A stretch of DNA of 64,000 bases from Candidatus Taylorbacteria bacterium RIFCSPHIGHO2_12_FULL_45_16 (lineage in GTDB: Bacteria > Patescibacteriota > Minisyncoccia > Phycocordibacterales > PALSA-1337), in assembly GCA_001821055.1 (NCBI GenBank), contig MHRT01000005.1:156378-220377 (forward strand). Direction: 5' to 3'. The first letter of the stretch is position 1. Every line of letters starts with the position of its first letter. Made by a program: the position numbers and the translations under genes. Below the pieces are notes generated by a model. The model saw only the letters and a list, made by a program, of their open reading frames with translations. It was not told where the DNA came from and did no database searches. Below, piece after piece: positions 10,277-38,131 of this stretch.

Positions 10277-10493
10277 AGAAGTAGCGTCTCACAAGGTGGT
10301 GCTCTCCAACTCAAGCCCCAGATACTCTGAGGGAACATCGGAGCGCCTCGTAAGTTATTATCGCATACTTCTGAGATAAGAATAACAAATGGGGCACACC
10401 GTGTGTCAACTAGACATGTGAATTACTTTTAATTTGTAATAAGATGCCTTGTGCAGGAGGCGAAGATTTGACAGAATAATTGCATTTAATATA

Positions 10494-25948: not shown

Positions 25949-26013
25949 AATGCAACATGCAGGCGGATCCACAGATTCACCTACGTATAAAACTTAATTT
26001 TAGATAAAAAAAG

Positions 26014-26043
26014 AGGGCACAACGGTTGCGAGTCGTTGTGCCC
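26014..26043 (-). terminator. Intrinsic terminator oriented for the minus strand (hairpin followed by a T-run on the minus strand)
   Basis: gggcacaacg-gttgcgagt-cgttgtgccc with 10-bp GC-rich stem. Plus strand has aaaaaaaga upstream, so the minus-strand RNA ends in UCUUUUUUU. Confidence 0.55.
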
Positions 26044-26696
26044 GAGATGGAGCGCAGAGATCATCGATCCCATCTGAATCTCACATCCCGCCGGATGTGC
26101 CCTGTTGCGTCCCAACAGGAAAGCTTGGACAAACATGACCTCGAGGGTCAGTCCCATAATCTTCATTCGGCAACATCGCTTTCAAATGTTTGTTTGCCTT
26201 CAGAAGACTACAGCAAGATACATTCCATTTTAACAATTCATCACAATACGCCTTATGCATCAAATTCAGCGTATTGTAGGAAGAATACAATCTTACTTAA
26301 GTGAAACGTATGCGTAGCATCTTCTTTCCATAATGCTCGTAACTCGCTTTCACTTATCTGGCTCTTTATGATAACAGGGCTATAGCCAGAACTGCCCTTT
26401 TCCACCAAGGGGACAATGTCCCCAAACCACAGAATCCCTAGGGGAAAGCCAAAGGCTGACCCCCCGGTGACCCAATGACAATGTACTGAAAGCGTCACAT
26501 GACGCATCAAGGTTGTATCAAATACCTTACCCTGACACGCTAAGTATAGCACACCTGCAGAATTTGTCAAGCGTTTTTATACTTTGTTTGTTGAAATCCC
26601 AAATTATGGCTCAAAATAAGGGGGTTTCAATGGTGCATTTTTATTTTCTTTATCTATTGTGCGCAGGTGAATCAGCAAATTCACATGCGTATCTTC

Positions 26697-27671
26697 CTAC
26701 CTCCAATGTGTCTTTATGTACTCCTCTGTCTCACTCATCGAGAATGGTTGAGTCGAATTGCCGACTCGAACATAGAAATCTTCTTTTTTATCACCATTTT
26801 GAAGATAGGCTGGCTTGTGACTTTCCTTTACCGAAACAACACAGATATCTTTACCGTCGATCTCCTCAAAACTAATCTTCACATATTTCGTAAATGGCAG
26901 ACCTATCAAAGTCTTGATCAACATCGTAACATGATTTTCGAAACCATCACGATTCTTCTTGGTCAGCGTCTTGTAATCATTTTGTAAACCGACGATTTTC
27001 GCGTCATCGCTCACTCCGATGAGCAAAGTTCCACCTTCTGAATTCAAAAACGCCACGATAGTTTTGAGTATCATTTTTTCCAATTCCCTGCTGATTTCGC
27101 CTTTGCGCGCGTCATAGCGGAGTGTTTCTTTGAATTCAACATACAAACCTTCGCCTTTTTCCAGTAGCACGCGCGGATCTCTGGAGAGAATGCGTCCAGA
27201 CGCTTCTTGAACCATGCTTTTGATGACATAGACGTGCTCATCCACATTAGAGACATTCTTGATTTTGGTTATGCGCCCATTAACGTGTTCAAGGATGATT
27301 GTAGCGTGATTCATCATCCTGCTAATCGGAGATTGGTACGTTTCCACTGAAGTCACATCACTAAGACTCATTGATTTGCGACGACGAAAAATTAGGCCTG
27401 ATTTTCTGACTATTTCTTTGTCATTGACTTCATATTGGGTAAAATACCAATCAAAAAACAACAATGAAAGATACACAAGTTGAAAAACAGAAAAAACAAA
27501 TACCTCAAATATATCAAAACGAATATAATCTGAGAGTACCCAATTTTGATACAGTGTGCCGTAATTGCCAACAAATGAAAGACCAAAAAACAAGATGGCC
27601 GCTATGATTTCCATCGACAAAACATTGCGTATAAAGACAAGCGGTCCTTCTTTGATGGTTATGTTACGCAT
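26697..27671 (-). CDS. Membrane-anchored bPH-domain (YdbT-like) protein fused to an AlbA_2/Schlafen-like putative DNA-binding domain
   Basis: N-terminal half has two long TM segments and a PH-like region. C-terminal half has LYVEFKETL … ELEKMILKTIVAFLNSEGGTLLIGVSDDAKIVGL, the AlbA_2 (PF04326-type) signature. Confidence 0.5.
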   Translation of the reverse strand: MRNITIKEGPLVFIRNVLSMEIIAAILFFGLSFVGNYGTLYQNWVLSDYIRFDIFEVFVFSVFQLVYLSLLFFDWYFTQYEVNDKEIVRKSGLIFRRRKSMSLSDVTSVETYQSPISRMMNHATIILEHVNGRITKIKNVSNVDEHVYVIKSMVQEASGRILSRDPRVLLEKGEGLYVEFKETLRYDARKGEISRELEKMILKTIVAFLNSEGGTLLIGVSDDAKIVGLQNDYKTLTKKNRDGFENHVTMLIKTLIGLPFTKYVKISFEEIDGKDICVVSVKESHKPAYLQNGDKKEDFYVRVGNSTQPFSMSETEEYIKTHWR

Positions 27672-27747
27672 ATGGATAGTATTCGATCACATAGTATCAT
27701 ATCGCGGTCATACCTTGAACTTGTCAGATTTGTTTTTGCGTGAGAAT

Positions 27748-30700
27748 CTACCTCGCGTGTGTTGGCGATTCATCGGCCCCAAACTCCTTGGGCGCGACCG
27801 CATCAATCATCTCTTTTTTGAGCGAACCTGGGAAGCCACTACCCGCTGGAACCAGTCGTCCGATAATAACATTTTCCATAAGACCGGTAAGGTTATCCTC
27901 CGCCCCGCGAACAGCGTTACCAATAAGGACACGAGTGGTGTGTTGGAATGATGCGGCTGACAGGAAACTCTTGCGTGAGAGCGAAGTCTCGGTAATACCC
28001 ATAACGATTCGTTCTCCTTTGGCGCTCAGACCACCCTCAATTTTCGCGATAGAATTTTCTTCAGAGAGATAAGCATCATCAACAACCATGCCCTCAGTCA
28101 GATTCGTATCGCCAGCATCTTTGATGCGACGACGGGAAAACATCTGCTTCACGATCACCTCAATGTGCTTGCGTGAGACAGTCTCACCCTGAAGTTCATA
28201 AATCTTACCGACTTCGGTAATAACATAATCTTTGGCGCGCTCTTCGCCGCCAAACTCAAACACATCATCAATGTCCGCGGAGCCGTCAGTAAGGAGATCC
28301 CCTTTTTTAATCTTGTCACCGGCGCGTACCAGAACAGTACGACGATATGGGAAAGTGTATTCAATCTGTTGCGTGAGTTTCTTTTTGCCACGATCTTCCA
28401 TTTCGGGCAAAACGACAATAACTTTTTCTTTACCGAGATCTTTGACTTCAACGACGACACCATCCACGGTCGCGACGACAGCTGGATTTTTTGGTCGGCG
28501 CTTCTCGAAGATTTCTTCAACGCGGGGCAGACCTAGAGTAATATCTCCACCCCGTGAAGCGGCGCCGCCAGCGTGAAATGTGCGCATCGTAAGCTGAGTG
28601 CCGGGTTCTCCAATGGCCTGAGCGGCGACCGTACCAACGGCTTCGCCAAGATCTATGATTTTATTTTTACCCAAATCGAGACCATAACATTGCGCGCAGA
28701 CACCACGGATCGTCTTGCAGGACAACGGCGAACGCACGGCGACATTGACCGCGTTGGATTCTTCCACCACGACGGCGTCCGCTTTTGAAAGAAGGTGTCC
28801 TTTCTCAAAGATAACTTTACCATTGGAGTCTTTGACATCTTCGGCCAAAATTCTGCCACGGATGTTTTTGGACAAAGGGGTGGCCACGCCTGAAGTCGTC
28901 TGGCGACGGATGACGATGAAGTCTTTGGTCCCACAATCATCTTCTGAAACAACCACATCCTGGGCAACCACGAAAAGTTTGCGGGTGAGATAGCCTGCTT
29001 TGGCGGTATTGAGTGCGGTGTCGGTAAGACCTTTGCGTGATCCGTGGGTCGTGATGAAGTATTCGATCGGAGTCAAGCCTTCCTTGGCGCATGAAAGAAT
29101 CGGAAACTCAATAGTATCTCCGGAGACTGACGCGATTAGACCTTTCATACCAGCCATTATAGTGATCTGGGAAAGCGAGCCGCGAGCACCAGAATTGACC
29201 ATGTCATACACTGAGCCATTTTTGTCTAGTGAAGCTGGGATAGTCTTTTCGACCTCGCCTTTTGCGTGTTGCCATATTTCGATATGCTTCCTGACGCGCT
29301 CTTCTTCCGTCAAAAGACCTTCATTGAATTGATGTGTCACGGCATCCGCTTTGTCTTTGCCATACTTTATGATGTCATATTTTGCCGGAGGAATGACGAT
29401 ATCATCAATGCCCCAGGTCGTACCGGAGAATGTGGCATAATGGAAACCAAATGATTTGATGCGATCCAATATAGGAGCGACATTTTCGGCGCCGTGAATG
29501 GTAATCATGTCGTCAATGATTGCCGCGATGCGCTTGCGACCAGCCTCTTCATTGAGAAACGGGTAATCCGTCGGAAGAATATCGTTGAGAAGAATGCGAC
29601 CGACGGTTGTCTCAAACAAACCTTCTTTGAATTTGGCGTACTTGGCGCCCTTTGGCACAATAACCTTTACCGGCTCACGAAGACCAATACTATTAAAATT
29701 ATATGCGAGTACCGCAGCATCCGGAGATTCAAAATACTTCTGTGAATTTTTTTCCACTTCTTCAGGTTTTTTGTCACTAACTATTTTGGTTACCCAAAAA
29801 CACCCAAGCACAATGTCAAGAAGCTTGGCGACGACCGTGGGATCGTTGTTACCTGGTTTTAAGATATTTTTGTCGGAAGCCATAATCATTTTGGCCTCCA
29901 TTTGCGCTTCATCCGACAATGGAACGTGGACGGCCATTTGATCACCATCAAAGTCGGCGTTGAAAGCCGTGCAGACAAGCGGGTGAACATGAATAGCGTT
30001 ACCTTCTATCAGGATTGGACGGAAAGCTTGGATACCAAGACGATGCAATGTCGGTGCACGATTCAAAAGAACATATTTGTGTTCGATGACTTCTTCGAGA
30101 ATTTCCCAAACTTCCTTGGCACCATCATCGATGAGACGGTTGGCACCACGAATATTATAAGCCAGTTCCTTTTTCAAAAGACCCGAAATAACGAATGGTC
30201 GGAACAATTCCAAAGCCATGTGCTTTGGCAGACCACATTGGTCAAGTTTCAATTCTGGACCGACGACGATAACCGAACGACCGGAATAGTCTACGCGTTT
30301 GCCGAGCAGATTTTGACGAAATAGGCCACGCTTTGACTTCAAACTATCGGAAAGAGATTTCAAGGCGCGTTTCTGGGCGGCGGCGGCGGCGGCGCCGGCT
30401 GAAGAGCTGTGACGAATGGAATTGTCAATGAGAGCGTCAACGGCCTCTTGGAGAATACGCTTTTCATTGCGGAGAATTACCTCCGGCGCGTTAATCTCTT
30501 TTAATTTCAAAAGACGATTGTTGCGATTGATGACGCGACGATACAGATCGTTGACATCGGATGTGGCATAACGACCGCCATCAAGAGCGACCATCGGACG
30601 AATGCCCGGCGGAATGACTGGAATGCGAATAAGAAACATCCACTCCGGACGGAGTTTGGCTTTAATCATCTGCTTGACGAGTGAGACGCGCTTGGAAAGC

Positions 30701-31455
30701 TTTTCATGATCAGCCGAACTTGCATTTTCCAAATATTCTTCGAGTTCGGTTTTGAGTTTGGCTAGATCAATTTTTTTCAAAAGTTCATAAACGACTTCCG
30801 CGCCGATACCGGCCTCAAAAAGTGAACCATATTTCATAGCATACTTGTGATATGTCATTTCATCCATGACCATGCCAAGCTGAAGACTTTCGATTTCTTT
30901 GCGAGCGTTGACTACAAGTTCTTTGAGGGCTTCCTTGGTTTTGTCGTCTTGCGCCCCTTTGACTTTGTTTTTGTATTCACCGTCAAGTTCTTTCAAAAAA
31001 GCGTTTTTTTCATTTTCATTTACCTTGGTAACGATATAGCCGGCAAAATAAACAACTTTTTCAAGATCGGCGGTTGTCATCCCCAAAATAAGTCCGATTC
31101 GCGACGGAACTGATCGAAGGAACCAAATATGAGAAACCGGACTAGCAAGTTCAATATGACCCATTCGTTCACGGCGAACAATCGAACGAGTGATTTCGAC
31201 TCCACACTTTTCACAGACTATTCCCTTGTAGCGGATGCCGCGATATTTGCCGCAATAACACTCATAGTCACGGTCCGGACCGAAGATTCGTTCATCGAAA
31301 AGACCACTCTTTTCTGAGCGCTGGGTGCGATAATTGATCGTCTCTGGCTTGGTGATTTCGCCATATGACCACTCAAGGATTTTGTCTGGTGAGGCCAAGG
31401 AGAGCTTCACGATGTCGAAGATTTGAGGATCTGATTTTTTTATTGGGGTGGTCAT
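27748..31455 (-). CDS. rpoC: DNA-directed RNA polymerase subunit beta'
   Basis: [12 protein letters not shown] catalytic motif, zinc-binding cysteines, trigger loop and so on. The track ORF to 31536 adds 27 aa that merely translate the upstream palindrome; the likely start is MTTPIKK at 31455. Confidence 0.9.
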
Positions 31456-31500
31456 GGTGATAATGTTATGGATTAATAGTGAAAATACGGGTTTTCGGGT

Positions 31501-31534
31501 GAGGTCCGACCTCCAGATCTGGAGGTCGGACCTC
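31501..31534. promoter_or_regulatory. Perfect 34-nt palindrome in the rpoB-rpoC intergenic spacer: 15-bp arms around GATC
   Basis: gaggtccgacctcca-gatc-tggaggtcggacctc. Shares the GGTGAGGTC-S-GACCTCCAGAT motif with 1519-1536. Confidence 0.6.
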
Positions 31535-31538
31535 AAGA

Positions 31539-34500
31539 TTACTCCTCCTCGACCTTCGGCTTACTGGTAAGTTCGACGTTAAGTGCTAACCCTCTCAGTG
31601 TCTTCAGTAACACATTAAACGACGCTGGCAAGTTCGGACTACGTGGACGTTCACCTTTGACAATAGCATCGAAGGTCTGTGAGCGGCCCACGATGTCATC
31701 TGATTTGACTGTAAGAATTTCACGCAAAGTGTGGGCGGCGCCGTGGCCGAGCAATGCCCAAACTTCCATTTCTCCAAAACGCTGACCACCACCCTGAGCC
31801 TTACCTCCGAGTGGCTGTTGAGTGATAAGTGAGTAAGGACCGATAGAGCGCATGTGGATTTTATCTTCAACCATGTGATGAAGTTTCAGAACATACATGT
31901 ATCCGACCGCTATTGGCTGACTGAAATGATCACCGGTTCGACCATCGCGAAGTCTCATTTTACCTGAAGCATCATATCCAGCTTTGACAAGCTCTTCTTT
32001 TATTTCAGTCTCGGTGGCGCCAACAAATGGCGGGACAATAGCTTGATAACCTAGAGCGTTGGCAGCCAGACCCAGATGCAATTCCAGAATTTGACCGAGG
32101 TTCATGCGCGAAGGTACGCCGAGCGGAGTCAAGATAACGTCTATCGGGGTTCCATCCTCCATATACGGCATGTCTTCTTCGGGGAGAATTCTGGATATGA
32201 CACCCTTGTTGCCGTGGCGACCAGCCATCTTATCTCCAACTGATATGTTCCGGACTTGAGCGACTTCAATATAAATCTTTTTAATGATGCCAGATTCAAG
32301 TTTGTCGCCTTTTTCTCGTGAAAATATTTTTACCGAAATGACACGTCCCCGTTTGCCGTTTTCCATACGTTTTGAAGTATCTTTGACGTCTCGAGCTTTT
32401 TCTCCGAAAATAGAGCGCAACAGGCGTTCTTCTGGCGTAAGCTGCGTTTCGCCTTTCGGAGAAATTTTGCCGACTAGAATATCTCCGGGACGGACTTCCG
32501 CGCCGATGCGCACGATACCTTCTTCGGTGAGATTTTTGAGCTTGGCTTCACCGACATTCGGGATGTCGCAAGTTGTGACTTCCGGACCGAGTTTGGTGTC
32601 GCGAACATTGACCACGAACTCCTCGATGTGGACCGAGCTCCATTTGCTGTTCTTGACAACCCGTTCCGAAAGAATGATTGCGTCCTCATAGTTGTTACCA
32701 GACCATGACATAAAAGCCACGAGCGCGTTGTGACCTAGAGCGATCTGGCCATTATCTGAAGTGGAAGTATCGGCGAGTATCGCGCCTTTCTTTACTTTGT
32801 CACCGACCGAAACTATTGGACGCTGATGAAATGCTGTAAAACCGTTCGTTCGTGAAAATAATACCAAATTGTACTCATATTTTTTTCCTTTCTTTGACAT
32901 AAACACAATTTTCTTGGCGTCAACGCTGACAATATCACCATCTTCAGGAGCCAGCACGAGGCGTCCAGTATCAAGAATCGCCTTTGCTTCTATGCCCGTA
33001 GCTACAAATGGAGCTTCCGGGACCAAGCACGGAGTCGCTTGCTTCAACATGTTCGATCCCATCAGCGCGCGATTGGCATCATCATGATTCACGAATGGGA
33101 TAAGCGAAGTAGCGATTGAAAAGGCTTGATTTGTAGCCACATCAATATAGTCAACTTCCTTACGGTTTGCCAAAGACGGTTTGCCGTTGATGCGGACTTC
33201 AATTTCATTGAGGATGATGTTGCCCTGACCGTCGAACGGGGTCGCCATGTGAGCAATCCGAAAGTTTTCTTCTTCAAGAGCGTTCATGTAAACTATCTCC
33301 TTGGTGATTTTGCCTTCCTTGACTTTGGCATATGGAGTCTCGATCATCCCAAAATCGTTGATCCGGGCATACATAGCCAGACGGAGGACCAGACCGATGT
33401 TCGGACCTTCTGGAGTATGGATCGGACACAAACGGCCGTAGTGTGAAGGATGAACATCACGGACCTCAAAACCAGCCCGTTCGCGCGAGAGACCGCCTGG
33501 ACCGAGAGCCGTCAACTGACGAAGGTTCTCGATTTCTCCCAAAGCGTTTGTCTGTTCCATAAATTGCGAAAGTTGGTTGGTCGTGAAAAATTCCTTGATT
33601 CTAGCTTGAAGTGGACGTGGATAGATAAATGAGACCGGTAAAATGATGTCTGGCTCGACCGTCGACATTTTGTCTTGAATATTGCGTTTCATTTGAGTTA
33701 GGCCGAGACGAATGCGTTGTTCAAGCAATTCGCCGACATAGCGAACGCGTCGTGAACCGAGGTGATCGATGTCGTCAGGCTTACTGTCCGGGGTATTGGT
33801 CAGAGAAATGATATGTCCGACGGTCGTGGCGATGTCGTCGAGATTTAGCGTCCGGCGTTCAAGCTCTTTTTCATCCATCAATTTGCCGAAACGCTTATTG
33901 AAACGAAAACGACCGACCCGATTGATATCATAACGGTCATCCTTGAGCAGGGTCTGGACAAAACTGCGAGCATTCTCGGCCGTGGCCAGATCGCCGTCAC
34001 GAAGACGCTTGTGAATCTCCATGTAAGCTTCGTCCTTGGTCTTGGCGTGATCCTTGGCCAAAGTCATCTCAATGATTTTGACAGCATCAGGATTTCCCTT
34101 GAATAACTCCTTGATCGCCTCATCAGTCTCCGCTCCAAGGACACGTAGAAGCGAGGAGATTGGAAACTTGCGCTTGCGATCTATCCGGCAGAAAATAGTT
34201 CCATCAGTATCAGTCTCGATTTCCATCCAGACGCCGCGAGCCGGAATGATTTTGGCGCCAAAATAGCTCTTACCTTTAACCTCAGTGCCGGTAAAAAAGA
34301 TTCCAAATGAGCGAGCCAATTGGGGTACAATCACCCTTTCGACGCCGTTGATAATGAAAGTGCCATGGTCAGTCATAAGGGGAATGTCTGCCAGAAACAT
34401 CTCCTGTTCTTTAACCACATTCAAAGACTTGTTCCTCAGAGTCACCTTGACTTTGATCTGACCTTCGTAGTTCAATTTGTTGTTCTTGGCATAGTGCTCA

Positions 34501-34718
34501 TCGAACTTCGGACGCTGAAGTTCCGGCGAACCGATCGACAAATCAAATTTTTTACCAGCATAGTCGGTAATCGGAGAAAATTCATCCAGTAAATTCTTTA
34601 TTCCCTTCTCGACAAGTTGTGTGAAAGACAGAAGCTGTGATTCAACCAAGTGTGGCGTCTCGGTCAGTGGCGCCTGGTAGCGAGAGAAAAATTTCTTCGG
34701 ACGAATTGTTGTGGTCAT
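31539..34718 (-). CDS. rpoB: DNA-directed RNA polymerase subunit beta
   Basis: Rif-region, fork and clamp motifs; 1072-aa ORF. The likely start is MTTTIRPKKFF at 34718; the track ORF begins at 34757. Confidence 0.9.
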   Translation of the reverse strand: MTTTIRPKKFFSRYQAPLTETPHLVESQLLSFTQLVEKGIKNLLDEFSPITDYAGKKFDLSIGSPELQRPKFDEHYAKNNKLNYEGQIKVKVTLRNKSLNVVKEQEMFLADIPLMTDHGTFIINGVERVIVPQLARSFGIFFTGTEVKGKSYFGAKIIPARGVWMEIETDTDGTIFCRIDRKRKFPISSLLRVLGAETDEAIKELFKGNPDAVKIIEMTLAKDHAKTKDEAYMEIHKRLRDGDLATAENARSFVQTLLKDDRYDINRVGRFRFNKRFGKLMDEKELERRTLNLDDIATTVGHIISLTNTPDSKPDDIDHLGSRRVRYVGELLEQRIRLGLTQMKRNIQDKMSTVEPDIILPVSFIYPRPLQARIKEFFTTNQLSQFMEQTNALGEIENLRQLTALGPGGLSRERAGFEVRDVHPSHYGRLCPIHTPEGPNIGLVLRLAMYARINDFGMIETPYAKVKEGKITKEIVYMNALEEENFRIAHMATPFDGQGNIILNEIEVRINGKPSLANRKEVDYIDVATNQAFSIATSLIPFVNHDDANRALMGSNMLKQATPCLVPEAPFVATGIEAKAILDTGRLVLAPEDGDIVSVDAKKIVFMSKKGKKYEYNLVLFSRTNGFTAFHQRPIVSVGDKVKKGAILADTSTSDNGQIALGHNALVAFMSWSGNNYEDAIILSERVVKNSKWSSVHIEEFVVNVRDTKLGPEVTTCDIPNVGEAKLKNLTEEGIVRIGAEVRPGDILVGKISPKGETQLTPEERLLRSIFGEKARDVKDTSKRMENGKRGRVISVKIFSREKGDKLESGIIKKIYIEVAQVRNISVGDKMAGRHGNKGVISRILPEEDMPYMEDGTPIDVILTPLGVPSRMNLGQILELHLGLAANALGYQAIVPPFVGATETEIKEELVKAGYDASGKMRLRDGRTGDHFSQPIAVGYMYVLKLHHMVEDKIHMRSIGPYSLITQQPLGGKAQGGGQRFGEMEVWALLGHGAAHTLREILTVKSDDIVGRSQTFDAIVKGERPRSPNLPASFNVLLKTLRGLALNVELTSKPKVEEE

Positions 34719-34979
34719 GTTATTTGTAATATAATTAAAATAGAGCCAACTAAACACGCAAAAAGTCCGTTTTTAAAAAACGGCTATTGAGTTCACATGC
34801 TTATAGTGATGTGATAGACACTAGGGTAGGACTAATGATGGACCTATCTAATCCTCCGCTAACGGTCCTTCTTCGCCAAGGCTACGAAGGACACAGCAGA
34901 ACACAATCTGCGAAGTTGTGTCTAGCCTAGCAGAGTACCTCCGGACTGTCAATGGTCATTTGGGGAAAACTTTGATTTC

Positions 34980-36814: not shown

Positions 36815-38131
36815 TTAATCGCTCAATATCTTCTCAATGGCCATCAATGCAAAGGTGATGTCTTTTTCTTTAGTCCAACGGCCAAATGAAAATCTAATCG
36901 AAGTTCCACTATCGGCGCCAATCGCTTTCAAGACATAAGATTCTTCTTCGTCGCGCAGACATGAGCTTTTAATTGAGCAGGCGATGCCTCTGGCATCTAA
37001 TTGAAACAAGAAAAACTCATTATCAACGCCCGGAATTGAGATATTCAAAATATGTGGCGAATGTTTCGAAATATCATTGTTTTCGCCATTTACCATGATA
37101 TCAGATCGAATTTTCTTCAGACCGGCAATCATTATATTTCTCAATTGTCCAGATTTTGTCGACATTCTTTTCTTCTTTTTTTCTAGTTGGCCTCTTTCTC
37201 TTCGCGCCATTTCCACTGCCTTGGCAAAACCAGCAATGGCTGGAAGGTTCTCTGTTCCCGATCTCATTCCTCCTTCTTGGCCACCACCATAGATGATAGG
37301 TTGGATCGGCGTACCCCGCTTCACAAACAAACATCCGATACCACGAGGCCCGTAAATTTTCGAACCATCCAAAGTCATGAGATCAATCCCAAGCTTTTCG
37401 ATATACAATTCTTCATAAAGAAATGCCTGAGCCGCATCAGTGTGGAAAAGTGGGTATATTGAAACCGATTCAGATTTATCATCTCTATCATTTTTAGGTG
37501 AAATATCTGCAATCGTATTATTACTATTATTTCCTGAAGTAATCTTACCAGCTCGAGCTTGTCTAATAGCTTTAGCAATCTCCTTTATCGGCTGGATCGA
37601 GCCGATCTCATTATTAACTGTCATTATTGAAACCAAGACCGTATTTATTTTGATAGTTTTTTTCAATTCATCTACAGAAATAATTCCAGTAGAATCAACT
37701 TTCAATCGAGTAATCTCACAACCATTTTTCTCCAAAAAGTTCGCTGTTTCAATAATCGAGGAATGTTCAATGTTTGAAATAATGATATGCGGCTTCGAAA
37801 TTCCAGCCATTTTCGCCGCCCGGACGACACCTTCTAGAGCCAATGCATTGGCTTCGGTTCCGCCACTGGTAAAGACAATTTCATCTGAATGGGAATGAAT
37901 GGTATCAGCGATTTTCTTACGCATTTCAAATAAAGCCTTCTTGGCCAAGACTCCTTCCATATATAGAGAAGAAGGATTGGCATACGCCTGCTTAGAGTAC
38001 TTACCCATTTCGCGAATGACTTTTTGGTCTATCGGAGTAAGTGAAGCATAATCAAGATAAATTCGTCTTTTCGATTTGATCATGGATAAAATGTAGCACA
38101 TTTTTGCCAAAAAAGTGTATAATCTCTCCAT
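36815..38131 (-). CDS. Cysteine desulfurase (class V aminotransferase, IscS/NifS-like) with a low-complexity insertion
   Basis: …DYASLTPID… FTSGGTEANALAL … HTDAAQAF … SKIYGPRGIGCLF (PLP-Lys region). An Asn/Ser-rich insertion lies before the PLP site. The start may be the internal MIKSKRR. Confidence 0.75.
   Translation of the reverse strand: MERLYTFLAKMCYILSMIKSKRRIYLDYASLTPIDQKVIREMGKYSKQAYANPSSLYMEGVLAKKALFEMRKKIADTIHSHSDEIVFTSGGTEANALALEGVVRAAKMAGISKPHIIISNIEHSSIIETANFLEKNGCEITRLKVDSTGIISVDELKKTIKINTVLVSIMTVNNEIGSIQPIKEIAKAIRQARAGKITSGNNSNNTIADISPKNDRDDKSESVSIYPLFHTDAAQAFLYEELYIEKLGIDLMTLDGSKIYGPRGIGCLFVKRGTPIQPIIYGGGQEGGMRSGTENLPAIAGFAKAVEMARRERGQLEKKKKRMSTKSGQLRNIMIAGLKKIRSDIMVNGENNDISKHSPHILNISIPGVDNEFFLFQLDARGIACSIKSSCLRDEEESYVLKAIGADSGTSIRFSFGRWTKEKDITFALMAIEKILSD

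Follow-up and report, generated by a model that had tools for sequence, protein, structure and literature searches.

A predicted membrane-anchored bPH_2–Schlafen protein with a conserved Ex4ExK motif in Taylorbacteria and its relatives

Layout of the gene and its product

The stretch of DNA analyzed here, referred to below as the window, comprises 64,000 nt of contig MHRT01000005.1 (positions 156,378 to 220,377) from Candidatus Taylorbacteria bacterium RIFCSPHIGHO2_12_FULL_45_16. The subject of this report is a minus-strand gene within it, at 26697..27671, that follows rpoC and that we refer to as the PH-Schlafen gene. In the structural model its product is a two-helix membrane hairpin followed by a bacterial PH domain (bPH_2) and a C-terminal Schlafen domain (SLFN_AlbA_2), with residues 1-157 appearing to form a YdbS-like module. 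The features of the gene are listed below, with hydropathy given on the Kyte–Doolittle (KD) scale and model confidence as the predicted local distance difference test (pLDDT).

26697..27671, minus strand: whole gene for the 324-aa YdbS-like/bPH_2 plus Schlafen (AlbA_2) protein, from the open reading frame (ORF) list, with an ATG start and the stop codon included
27672..27747, minus strand: 76-nt spacer from the rpoC stop to the start of the gene, without a detectable promoter, terminator or stable structure
27645..27671, minus strand: short N-terminus, residues 1-9, predicted cytoplasmic, with the IKEGP motif and a beta-strand predicted by the model at residues 4-7
27570..27644, minus strand: predicted transmembrane helix 1, residues 10-34 (KD peak 2.0-2.2; AlphaFold2 helix 10-34)
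27519..27569, minus strand: predicted extracytoplasmic loop, residues 35-51, with the lowest conservation and one Lys/Arg (K/R)
27441..27518, minus strand: predicted transmembrane helix 2, residues 52-77 (KD peak 2.1; model helix 52-77)
27201..27440, minus strand: bacterial PH domain (bPH_2), residues 78-157, predicted cytoplasmic, a beta-sandwich (79-141) plus a helix (143-157) (Pfam, Foldseek)
27156..27200, minus strand: linker, residues 158-172 (pLDDT 65-69), partly helical at 166-172
26700..27155, minus strand: Schlafen/AlbA_2 domain, residues 173-324 (Pfam, Foldseek, family profile versus PDB)
27129..27152, minus strand: Ex4ExK motif E174-GLYV-E179-F-K181, residues 174-181, its codons checked directly in the DNA
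27006..27008, minus strand: D222 within IGVSDD, the third conserved acidic residue, which aligns in the Schlafen GVDD motif

Both domains were identified by Pfam with matches that are far outside chance and well over the curated cut-offs: SLFN_AlbA_2 (PF04326) at residues 174-310 (E 1.4e-22; 80.9 bits, cut-off 25.3; profile positions 1-117 of 118) and bPH_2 (PF03703) at residues 75-144 (E 8.4e-12; 45.6 bits, cut-off 22). No meaningful family assignment for the protein was found in NCBIfam. The original prediction for this gene had described two long hydrophobic segments, a PH-like region of the YdbT/YdbS type and an AlbA_2 signature, and each of these was recovered. The hydrophobic segments lie at approximately residues 10-34 and 52-77 (KD peaks of 2.0-2.2, and helices in the model), the PH-like region was identified as bPH_2 by Pfam and as a PH fold in the model and by Foldseek, and the AlbA_2 signature comprises VEFKETL at residues 178-184 and IVAFLNSEGGTLLIGVSDDAKIVGL at residues 205-229; the Pfam matches to the two halves both exceed the gathering cut-offs.

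The AlphaFold2 model has a mean pLDDT of 78.4, with values of 80-91 over most of the Schlafen domain, and consists of an N-terminal strand, two helices, a seven-strand PH sandwich with helix 143-157, the linker and an alpha/beta domain at 178-323. In Foldseek comparisons to PDB the C-terminal half matched bacterial AlbA_2 structures (3lmm, 2kyy), the AlbA_2/tRNase domain of SAMD9 (7ksp, 9o0d) and SLFN5/11/13/14, with the Schlafen-fold matches (3lmm, 7ksp, 2kyy, 9o0d, 5yd0, 7zep, 7cux and 9nyy) having E values of 3e-6 to 6e-4 and a Foldseek probability of 1.00, and the middle region matched PH domains, the bacterial 3dcx among them. Conservation was assessed in alignments that included 53 relatives of 62-82% identity (A1) and 57 full-length relatives of 24-54% identity (A2, the divergent relatives). 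Five N-terminal residues (M1, R2, E8, G9 and P10) are invariant in A1, and the conservation score rises from 0.46 for residues 41-51 to 0.57 for the linker, 0.69 for the bPH domain and 0.75 for the nuclease domain.

The C-terminal domain has the Schlafen RNase motif

The residues E174, E179, K181 and D222 were all invariant in A1, and among the relatives in A2 the residues E174, K181 and D222 were invariant and E179 was at least 90% conserved; the column equivalent to D222 was also at least 90% conserved in alignment A3. In a comparison of the family profile to PDB, matches were obtained to SLFN14, SLFN11 and SLFN13 (E 2e-8 to 6e-6), and the profile string gE-x4-EfK ... liGvdD aligned column by column with tEsthvEFK ... 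LIGVDDK of SLFN14 and likewise with its equivalents in SLFN11 and SLFN13. The counterparts of Ex4ExK in these proteins are EsthvEFK (SLFN14), EsqsiEFK (SLFN11) and EsasiEFK (SLFN13); in one deposited chain of SLFN14 an Ala stands in place of the second Glu, apparently a substitution. The Asp of the GVDD motif, equivalent to D222, is a residue that we take to be catalytic in SLFN13. Outside the Pfam model, the C-terminal helix at residues 312-323 (consensus EA..YI..HW, with Y318 and W323 conserved) is conserved in, and specific to, this Schlafen subfamily.

The motif Ex4ExK, in prokaryotes Ex4(E/D)xK, is the signature of Schlafen RNases, and Ala substitutions in it abolish defence by RorSlfn5 (PMC13056530). 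The C-terminal half had originally been viewed as an AlbA_2 nucleic-acid binder, and in that proposal the AlbA_2 domain is real, but the term binder undersells the conserved Ex4ExK plus Asp motif. From the conservation of these residues, a Schlafen-type RNase whose catalytic motif is intact would be a better description of the domain than a passive DNA or RNA binder.

Predicted membrane topology

The two hydrophobic helices are flanked by an uneven distribution of positively charged residues. There are three K/R in the N-terminus (residues 1-18), one in the 16-residue loop between the helices and seven in the 25 residues past helix 2. The same trend was present throughout the divergent relatives, as K/R on the N-terminal and post-helix 2 side outnumbered those in the loop in 57/57, with a mean KD for helix 1 of 2.22 and a loop of 11-18 aa that has a mean of 1.04 K/R. 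From the positive-inside rule, the protein is predicted to be N-in/C-in with its PH and Schlafen domains both cytoplasmic, a prediction that bears on the question raised originally of whether AlbA_2 is cytoplasmic. A signal peptide followed by a soluble domain, the alternative reading, was ruled out by the two hydrophobic helices, the N-in/C-in bias of K/R and the conserved N-terminal motif.

Distribution of the fusion and its modular relatives

A search of 5.8 billion proteins returned 695 matches. Of the best 120, nearly all had a length of 324-325 aa; their identity to the query was 62-83%, and both domains were present in 120/120. Names for these proteins in the source databases included "membrane protein YdbS with pleckstrin-like domain" and "RNA-binding domain-containing protein" (Patescibacteria, Taylorbacteria), and members in UniProt are listed as an uncharacterised "Schlafen AlbA-2 domain-containing protein". 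An exhaustive search of 50%-identity representatives gave 7,232 matches at E<=1e-3 and 388 at E<=1e-30; approximately 70 of the best 150 representatives cover the whole query (313-347 aa), and hundreds of 90%-identity clusters have the full layout. In the divergent relatives of A2, SLFN_AlbA_2 was identified in 57/57 and bPH_2 (E<=1e-3) in 46/57. The Patescibacteria members belong to Paceibacteria and to Taylor-, Nomura-, Harrison- and Colwellbacteria, and a second search, seeded with a member of 24% identity, identified Chloroflexota members (Anaerolineae, Promineifilaceae), some of them on contigs of 0.4-2.5 Mb. One full-length homologue of 61% identity is encoded on a 5.7-kb contig labelled Nitrospira sp. 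(L017, JBEBJM010000040.1); this contig is probably a mis-binned member of the candidate phyla radiation (CPR), since all other taxonomically labelled close homologues are from Patescibacteria/CPR.

Given the many relatives with the full layout across Patescibacteria and Chloroflexota, the fusion appears to be an old and widespread family and not a one-off oddity. The proposal that this is an unusual architecture is contradicted by the hundreds of clusters and the roughly 70 of the best 150 representatives noted above. As for where the fusion recurs, it is found both in CPR genomes and in Chloroflexota, and its recurrent neighbours are truB and typA. A literature search found no paper on a membrane-anchored or PH-fused Schlafen, and a membrane or PH fusion has no occurrence in the main text of PMC13056530, a check that covered the main text and not the 55 compositions in the supplement.

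Relatives of the Schlafen domain alone, at 45-56% identity, have the domain C-terminal to differing N-terminal modules. In the 56 proteins scanned these modules were SBP_bac_3 (8), GmrSD_N/DUF262 (4), CBS (3), TIR (3), Response_reg (2) and ACT (2), together with single cases of a BrxL ATPase, a type I restriction R-subunit, HNH, WD40 and a trypsin-like module. As judged from these sequences, such module swapping would be the same "variable sensor plus Schlafen effector" modularity as reported for prokaryotic Schlafens (pSlfns), and EcoSlfn7, which is active in experiments, is a DUF262-Slfn protein (PMC13056530). A phage origin of the fusion was rejected, as viral contigs hold the Schlafen half alone and never the fusion.

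Genomic neighbourhood

In the window, rpoB (31539..34757) is followed by rpoC (27748..31536 as listed) and then, on the same strand and after the 76-nt gap at 27672..27747 that had been noted originally, by the PH-Schlafen gene. The listed start of rpoC is a TTG at 31536, and homologues align only from an ATG 27 codons downstream (MTTPIKK..., 31455), so the real start is probably ATG 31455 and the longer ORF an artefact of the longest-ORF rule.

The original prediction had also suggested that the gene may be co-transcribed with rpoBC, and it is useful to consider the stronger form of this proposal, that it serves the rpoBC operon as a transcription-related accessory. The 76-nt gap showed neither a promoter-like nor a terminator-like site and had no stable fold (z 0.41), which makes local read-through plausible, and the same gene order occurs in three relatives (L003, L045 and L093), in one of which (L003) the longer gap also has no same-strand site. 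The arrangement is not conserved, however. Full-length homologues (55-85% identity) were compared in 23 genomes that each represent a species, and rpoC was upstream on the same strand in only 5/23 loci. These are the five closest, with gaps of ~0.2-4 kb, and in 4 of the 5 the gap is occupied by truB, by an ABC transporter or by further ORFs. What follows rpoC in near relatives is truB, with the PH-Schlafen gene missing from this slot, and in the more divergent members whose loci were examined in Patescibacteria and Chloroflexota rpoC is never a neighbour. Since adjacency to rpoC is confined to the closest relatives and absent from all more distant members, we consider it incidental and without functional weight, conserved membership in the rpoBC operon was ruled out, and a role as an rpoBC accessory is extremely unlikely.

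The most widely kept neighbour is typA, which was convergent with the gene in 14 of the 23 species loci and divergent in two. The gene truB (Pfam TruB_N, E 1.7e-23) was linked in 13/23 loci: in 10 it is directly upstream on the same strand at a distance of 4-70 nt, in two it is 0.7-1 kb away, and in one (L008) it is directly downstream, so that the order is flipped and the genes are still adjacent. Also in the truB/typA block are hisS and an RNase_H-fold exonuclease. No truB was found anywhere in the 64-kb window. Linkage to truB and typA is lost in more divergent Patescibacteria, where the gene is located near ftsA/ftsZ/RNR, near groES/EL or among assorted genes, and it is lost in Chloroflexota as well. 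Of four Chloroflexota loci, two are beside small membrane proteins, one is beside a PIN gene and one is between a peptidase and a MalT-like regulator. In the first two (L037 and L038) the ~5-15 kb around the homologue contain repeated genes for small membrane proteins (DUF1269, Phage_holin_4_2 and DUF308). Phage_holin_4_2 (PF04020) is, we presume, the family of the sigma-W-regulated YvlD of Bacillus subtilis. Both yvlABCD and ydbST belong to the sigma-W envelope-stress regulon (PMC3498285).

The surroundings of the gene in the window were scanned with PADLOC, using 10 larger ORFs between ~15.9 and 40.9 kb other than rpoB, rpoC and typA, and no known defence gene was found within ~10 kb. The only match among these neighbours was a generic cysteine desulfurase, encoded at 36815..38131 on the minus strand, a class-V aminotransferase (IscS/NifS-like) that matched the SspA and DndA models (E ~1e-107) in two stretches. 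Its probable role is that of a housekeeping desulfurase, perhaps one that has an internal insertion, and other Ssp or Dnd components were not seen among the scanned neighbours. Membership of the PH-Schlafen protein itself in a PADLOC system was rejected, its only match being a weak one (2.7e-4) to a prokaryotic Argonaute model, in the part of that model that is N-terminal and Schlafen-like.

Downstream of the gene, the 748-nt spacer at 25949..26696 that separates it from the convergent typA is without a credible ORF. An RNA gene or pseudogene in the spacer was rejected, as Rfam gave no match at E<=1, neither a tRNA nor a tmRNA was found, and blastx and tblastx showed no similarity to the neighbouring genes of relatives. 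The spacer does contain a minus-strand sigma-70 promoter close to the consensus (TTGACA-16 nt-TATACT with an upstream TG, 26570..26543), and a 74-nt patch around it has 77% identity to the syntenic spacer of L002, this being the sole shared stretch. In relatives the spacer between typA and the PH-Schlafen gene ranges in length from 13 nt to >3 kb. A small RNA or small ORF may be present in the 748-nt spacer. Elsewhere in the window, a full-length Rfam DUF3800-V RNA (RF02964) was identified at 10277..10372 on the minus strand (76.7 bits, gathering score 37.4, E 1e-15).

Inheritance and presence of the gene

In loci that have both, pairwise identities for the gene correlate with those for typA (Mantel r = 0.64, p = 4e-4), and neighbour-joining trees of the two recover the same clades, which indicates that descent has been mainly vertical. 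Discordance between the gene and typA was traced to long branches of the gene in three loci, L021 (6001-7020), L043 and L049, whose PH-Schlafen orthologues have 48-60% identity compared to 82-91% for the neighbouring typA; the orthologue in L021 also has an insertion of ~18 residues inside the Schlafen domain. This divergence points to a likely lineage-specific acceleration in rate. Horizontal transfer or allele replacement as the source of the discordant identities was ruled out by the shared clades and by the long branches being those of L021, L043 and L049.

To guard against ascertainment bias, presence and absence were scored in independent metagenome contigs anchored on typA, of which 26 loci had enough flank. 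The gene is beside typA in 13/26 loci and missing there in 13/26, with its presence elsewhere in those genomes being possible, and at least five state changes (losses or moves) are needed on the typA tree. In three loci where typA is ~90% identical to that of the window, the order is rpoC-truB|typA and the PH-Schlafen gene is missing. No remnants of the gene were found in relatives without it beside typA, even at tblastn E<=10. Given its presence at half of the loci, the number of changes and the remnant-free absences, the gene is dispensable at this locus, which fits a conditional rather than an essential function.

The occupancy of the slot between rpoC and typA varies even among close relatives (L001-L006, L041-L094). 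It holds truB alone in L044, L068, L079 and others, truB plus the PH-Schlafen gene in L041, L043, L063 and others, and the PH-Schlafen gene alone in the window, L045 and L093; an ABC transporter or unassigned ORFs are inserted in L001, L002 and L004. In some more distant relatives (typA identity of 75-82%; e.g., L051-L056, L059 and L094) neither truB, the PH-Schlafen gene nor rpoC was found within ±6 kb of typA.

Comparison to known systems

The experimentally studied pSlfns are the closest comparison. RorSlfn5, an Ig-like fusion, is a nuclease of the tRNA anticodon arm that was assayed with Mn2+, is a hexamer when purified and is activated by a phage tail-assembly chaperone (PMC13056530). Like RorSlfn5 and EcoSlfn7, the protein described here has a single AlbA_2/Schlafen unit with Ex4(E/D)xK and combines a variable module with a Schlafen effector in one gene, and GmrSD_N/DUF262 fusions, which share the composition of EcoSlfn7, are among its nearest relatives in the Schlafen domain (45-56% identity). 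It differs from them in that the fused module is a predicted membrane hairpin plus bPH_2, that there is no defence island, that inheritance appears vertical and the putative sensor is well conserved, and that its RNase activity is a prediction from sequence.

A further parallel is Cash (Csx15-Schlafen), a type III CRISPR-associated pSlfn that is turned on by cyclic tetra-adenylate (cA4), cuts tRNA mainly in the T-loop and has an amplification step driven by polymerisation (PMC13462974). The likeness lies in the way Cash works, as a Schlafen tRNase that is held inactive and switched on via a fused regulatory domain and higher-order assembly; unlike Cash, the protein here lacks a Rossmann-like sensor, and its context is not one of CRISPR or cyclic oligoadenylates. 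A parallel between T-loop cleavage by Cash and the neighbouring truB would be speculative. With the N-terminal RNase core of mammalian SLFN11/13/14 the protein shares its fold and catalytic motif. Each mammalian chain appears to have a pair of AlbA_2-like lobes in this core, as the family profile matches it twice, and N- and C-lobes have been described for the Schlafen core (PMC13056530). In contrast, there is one unit here, so the protein presumably must oligomerise, and it is predicted to be membrane-anchored and has neither helicase nor linker domains.

The N-terminal half has its own set of relatives. YdbS of B. subtilis, a protein of 159 aa, has two transmembrane helices and one PHb2 domain, and the PH-domain proteins DdE and DdF act in the transport of a leaderless bacteriocin (PMC8657885). 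Residues 1-157 match the YdbS layout of two transmembrane helices plus one PHb2 domain, but YdbS-type proteins carry no enzymatic domain and here a nuclease domain is appended. In model bacteria the housekeeping endoribonucleases RNase Y and RNase E are anchored at the membrane, which makes them functional analogues in that an endoribonuclease domain is placed at the cytoplasmic face of the membrane. Their folds and catalytic mechanisms are unrelated to those of the PH-Schlafen protein, and they are near-universal in their own lineages, unlike the variably present PH-Schlafen gene.

In view of these comparisons, the domain family, the catalytic motif and the sensor–effector logic were known already from the literature of 2026. 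As far as we have searched, the membrane hairpin/bPH_2 input, the non-defence vertical context and the distribution across Patescibacteria and Chloroflexota are undescribed so far.

Possible functions of the protein

Characterised pSlfns stay latent until a fused domain and oligomerisation activate them, and bPH_2 proteins are tied to envelope stress and membrane-active peptides; on those grounds we favour a membrane-tethered pSlfn, that is, a latent tRNA/rRNA endonuclease gated by its membrane module upon perturbation of the membrane or envelope by phage or other stress; we give this reading an even chance of being right. In such a mechanism the YdbS-like module (residues 1-157) would tether the nuclease domain (173-324) to the inner face of the membrane and the protein would be inactive by default. 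Phage attack, membrane-active peptides or other stress would be sensed as a membrane or envelope perturbation by the hairpin/bPH module, which would shift the oligomeric state of the protein, and the new state would cleave tRNA, possibly also rRNA, and so throttle translation. The RNase activity, its substrate, the trigger and the gating by oligomerisation are all steps that we infer. Support for this reading comes from the two domains and their folds, the conserved Ex4ExK plus Asp residues and their alignment to SLFN11/13/14, the swappable modules of the closest Schlafen-domain relatives, the N-in/C-in bias in 57/57 members, the dispensability of the gene beside typA and the small membrane proteins (DUF1269, Phage_holin_4_2 and DUF308) encoded next to it in two of the four Chloroflexota loci. 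Several observations weigh against it. The membrane trigger is drawn purely by analogy to other bPH_2 proteins. In pSlfn5 the sensor is more variable than the nuclease (PMC13056530), but here the putative sensor is nearly as conserved (0.69) as the Schlafen domain (0.75), which suggests that there is no arms-race signature. The apparently vertical descent counts on the same side, as do the absence of a known defence gene in the PADLOC scan, the housekeeping neighbours at every Patescibacteria locus examined, and the negative outcome of looking for the fusion in phage contigs and PADLOC.

Many of these same observations would suit a housekeeping membrane endoribonuclease that acts in the processing, quality control or turnover of tRNA or rRNA and is coupled to tRNA modification by TruB. 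Such a function would account for the truB linkage in 13/23 loci (4-70 nt upstream on the same strand in 10, and adjacent even where flipped in L008), for typA, hisS, trmD and rpoBC being close by, for the vertical inheritance and the even conservation of all domains and for the lack of defence genes within ~10 kb; it has also been reported that 30.4% of pSlfn genes have no defence neighbours and may be non-immune (PMC13056530). Yet the gene is missing from the typA slot in half of the close relatives, including three with ~90% typA identity, with at least five changes (relocation being possible), a pattern not usual for a processing enzyme that is essential, the truB/typA linkage is gone in divergent Patescibacteria and Chloroflexota, neighbours with roles in translation are the default in small CPR genomes, and the prokaryotic Schlafens that have been characterised are all conditional toxins. 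As such, we view a housekeeping role, the main rival reading, as possible but doubtful. A non-catalytic role, in which AlbA_2 binds nucleic acid at the membrane (e.g., in type IV pilus or DNA-uptake handling) or the protein is a membrane-sequestered regulator, draws on the many AlbA_2 proteins annotated as DNA-binding or helix-turn-helix regulators (the fold matches 3lmm, 2kyy and the SAMD9 DNA-binding domain 7ksp, and the names in source databases) and on pilB and pilC, which both the window and several relatives have on the far side of typA. Such a role is quite improbable, as the conservation of three acidic residues and a lysine down to 24% identity is hard to explain without catalysis, no helix-turn-helix or other DNA-binding domain was found by Pfam, and typA stands between the gene and the pil genes, which are unlinked to the gene in divergent members. 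A more far-reaching form of the membrane-gated tRNase would be an ancient, mainly vertical, non-immune translational brake of Patescibacteria and Chloroflexota, in which membrane state couples envelope or energy stress, or episymbiont attachment, to tRNA cleavage and the pairing with truB relates the status of T-loop pseudouridine-55 to susceptibility to cleavage; this is rather unlikely.

Significance for the family

It was only in 2026 that pSlfns were shown to be trigger-activated tRNases, and how they are switched by fused domains was the question left by that work. If the protein described here is merely another pSlfn architecture, then its identification is a useful annotation and no surprise. 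If the favoured reading of a membrane-gated endonuclease is true, membrane state would be a new class of pSlfn input, beside a phage protein or a nucleotide signal, and the enigmatic bPH_2/YdbS module would have its first enzymatic read-out. The family, which is located outside defence islands, appears to be inherited vertically in tiny CPR genomes and is common to Chloroflexota, is a candidate for the "non-immune" functions of pSlfns.

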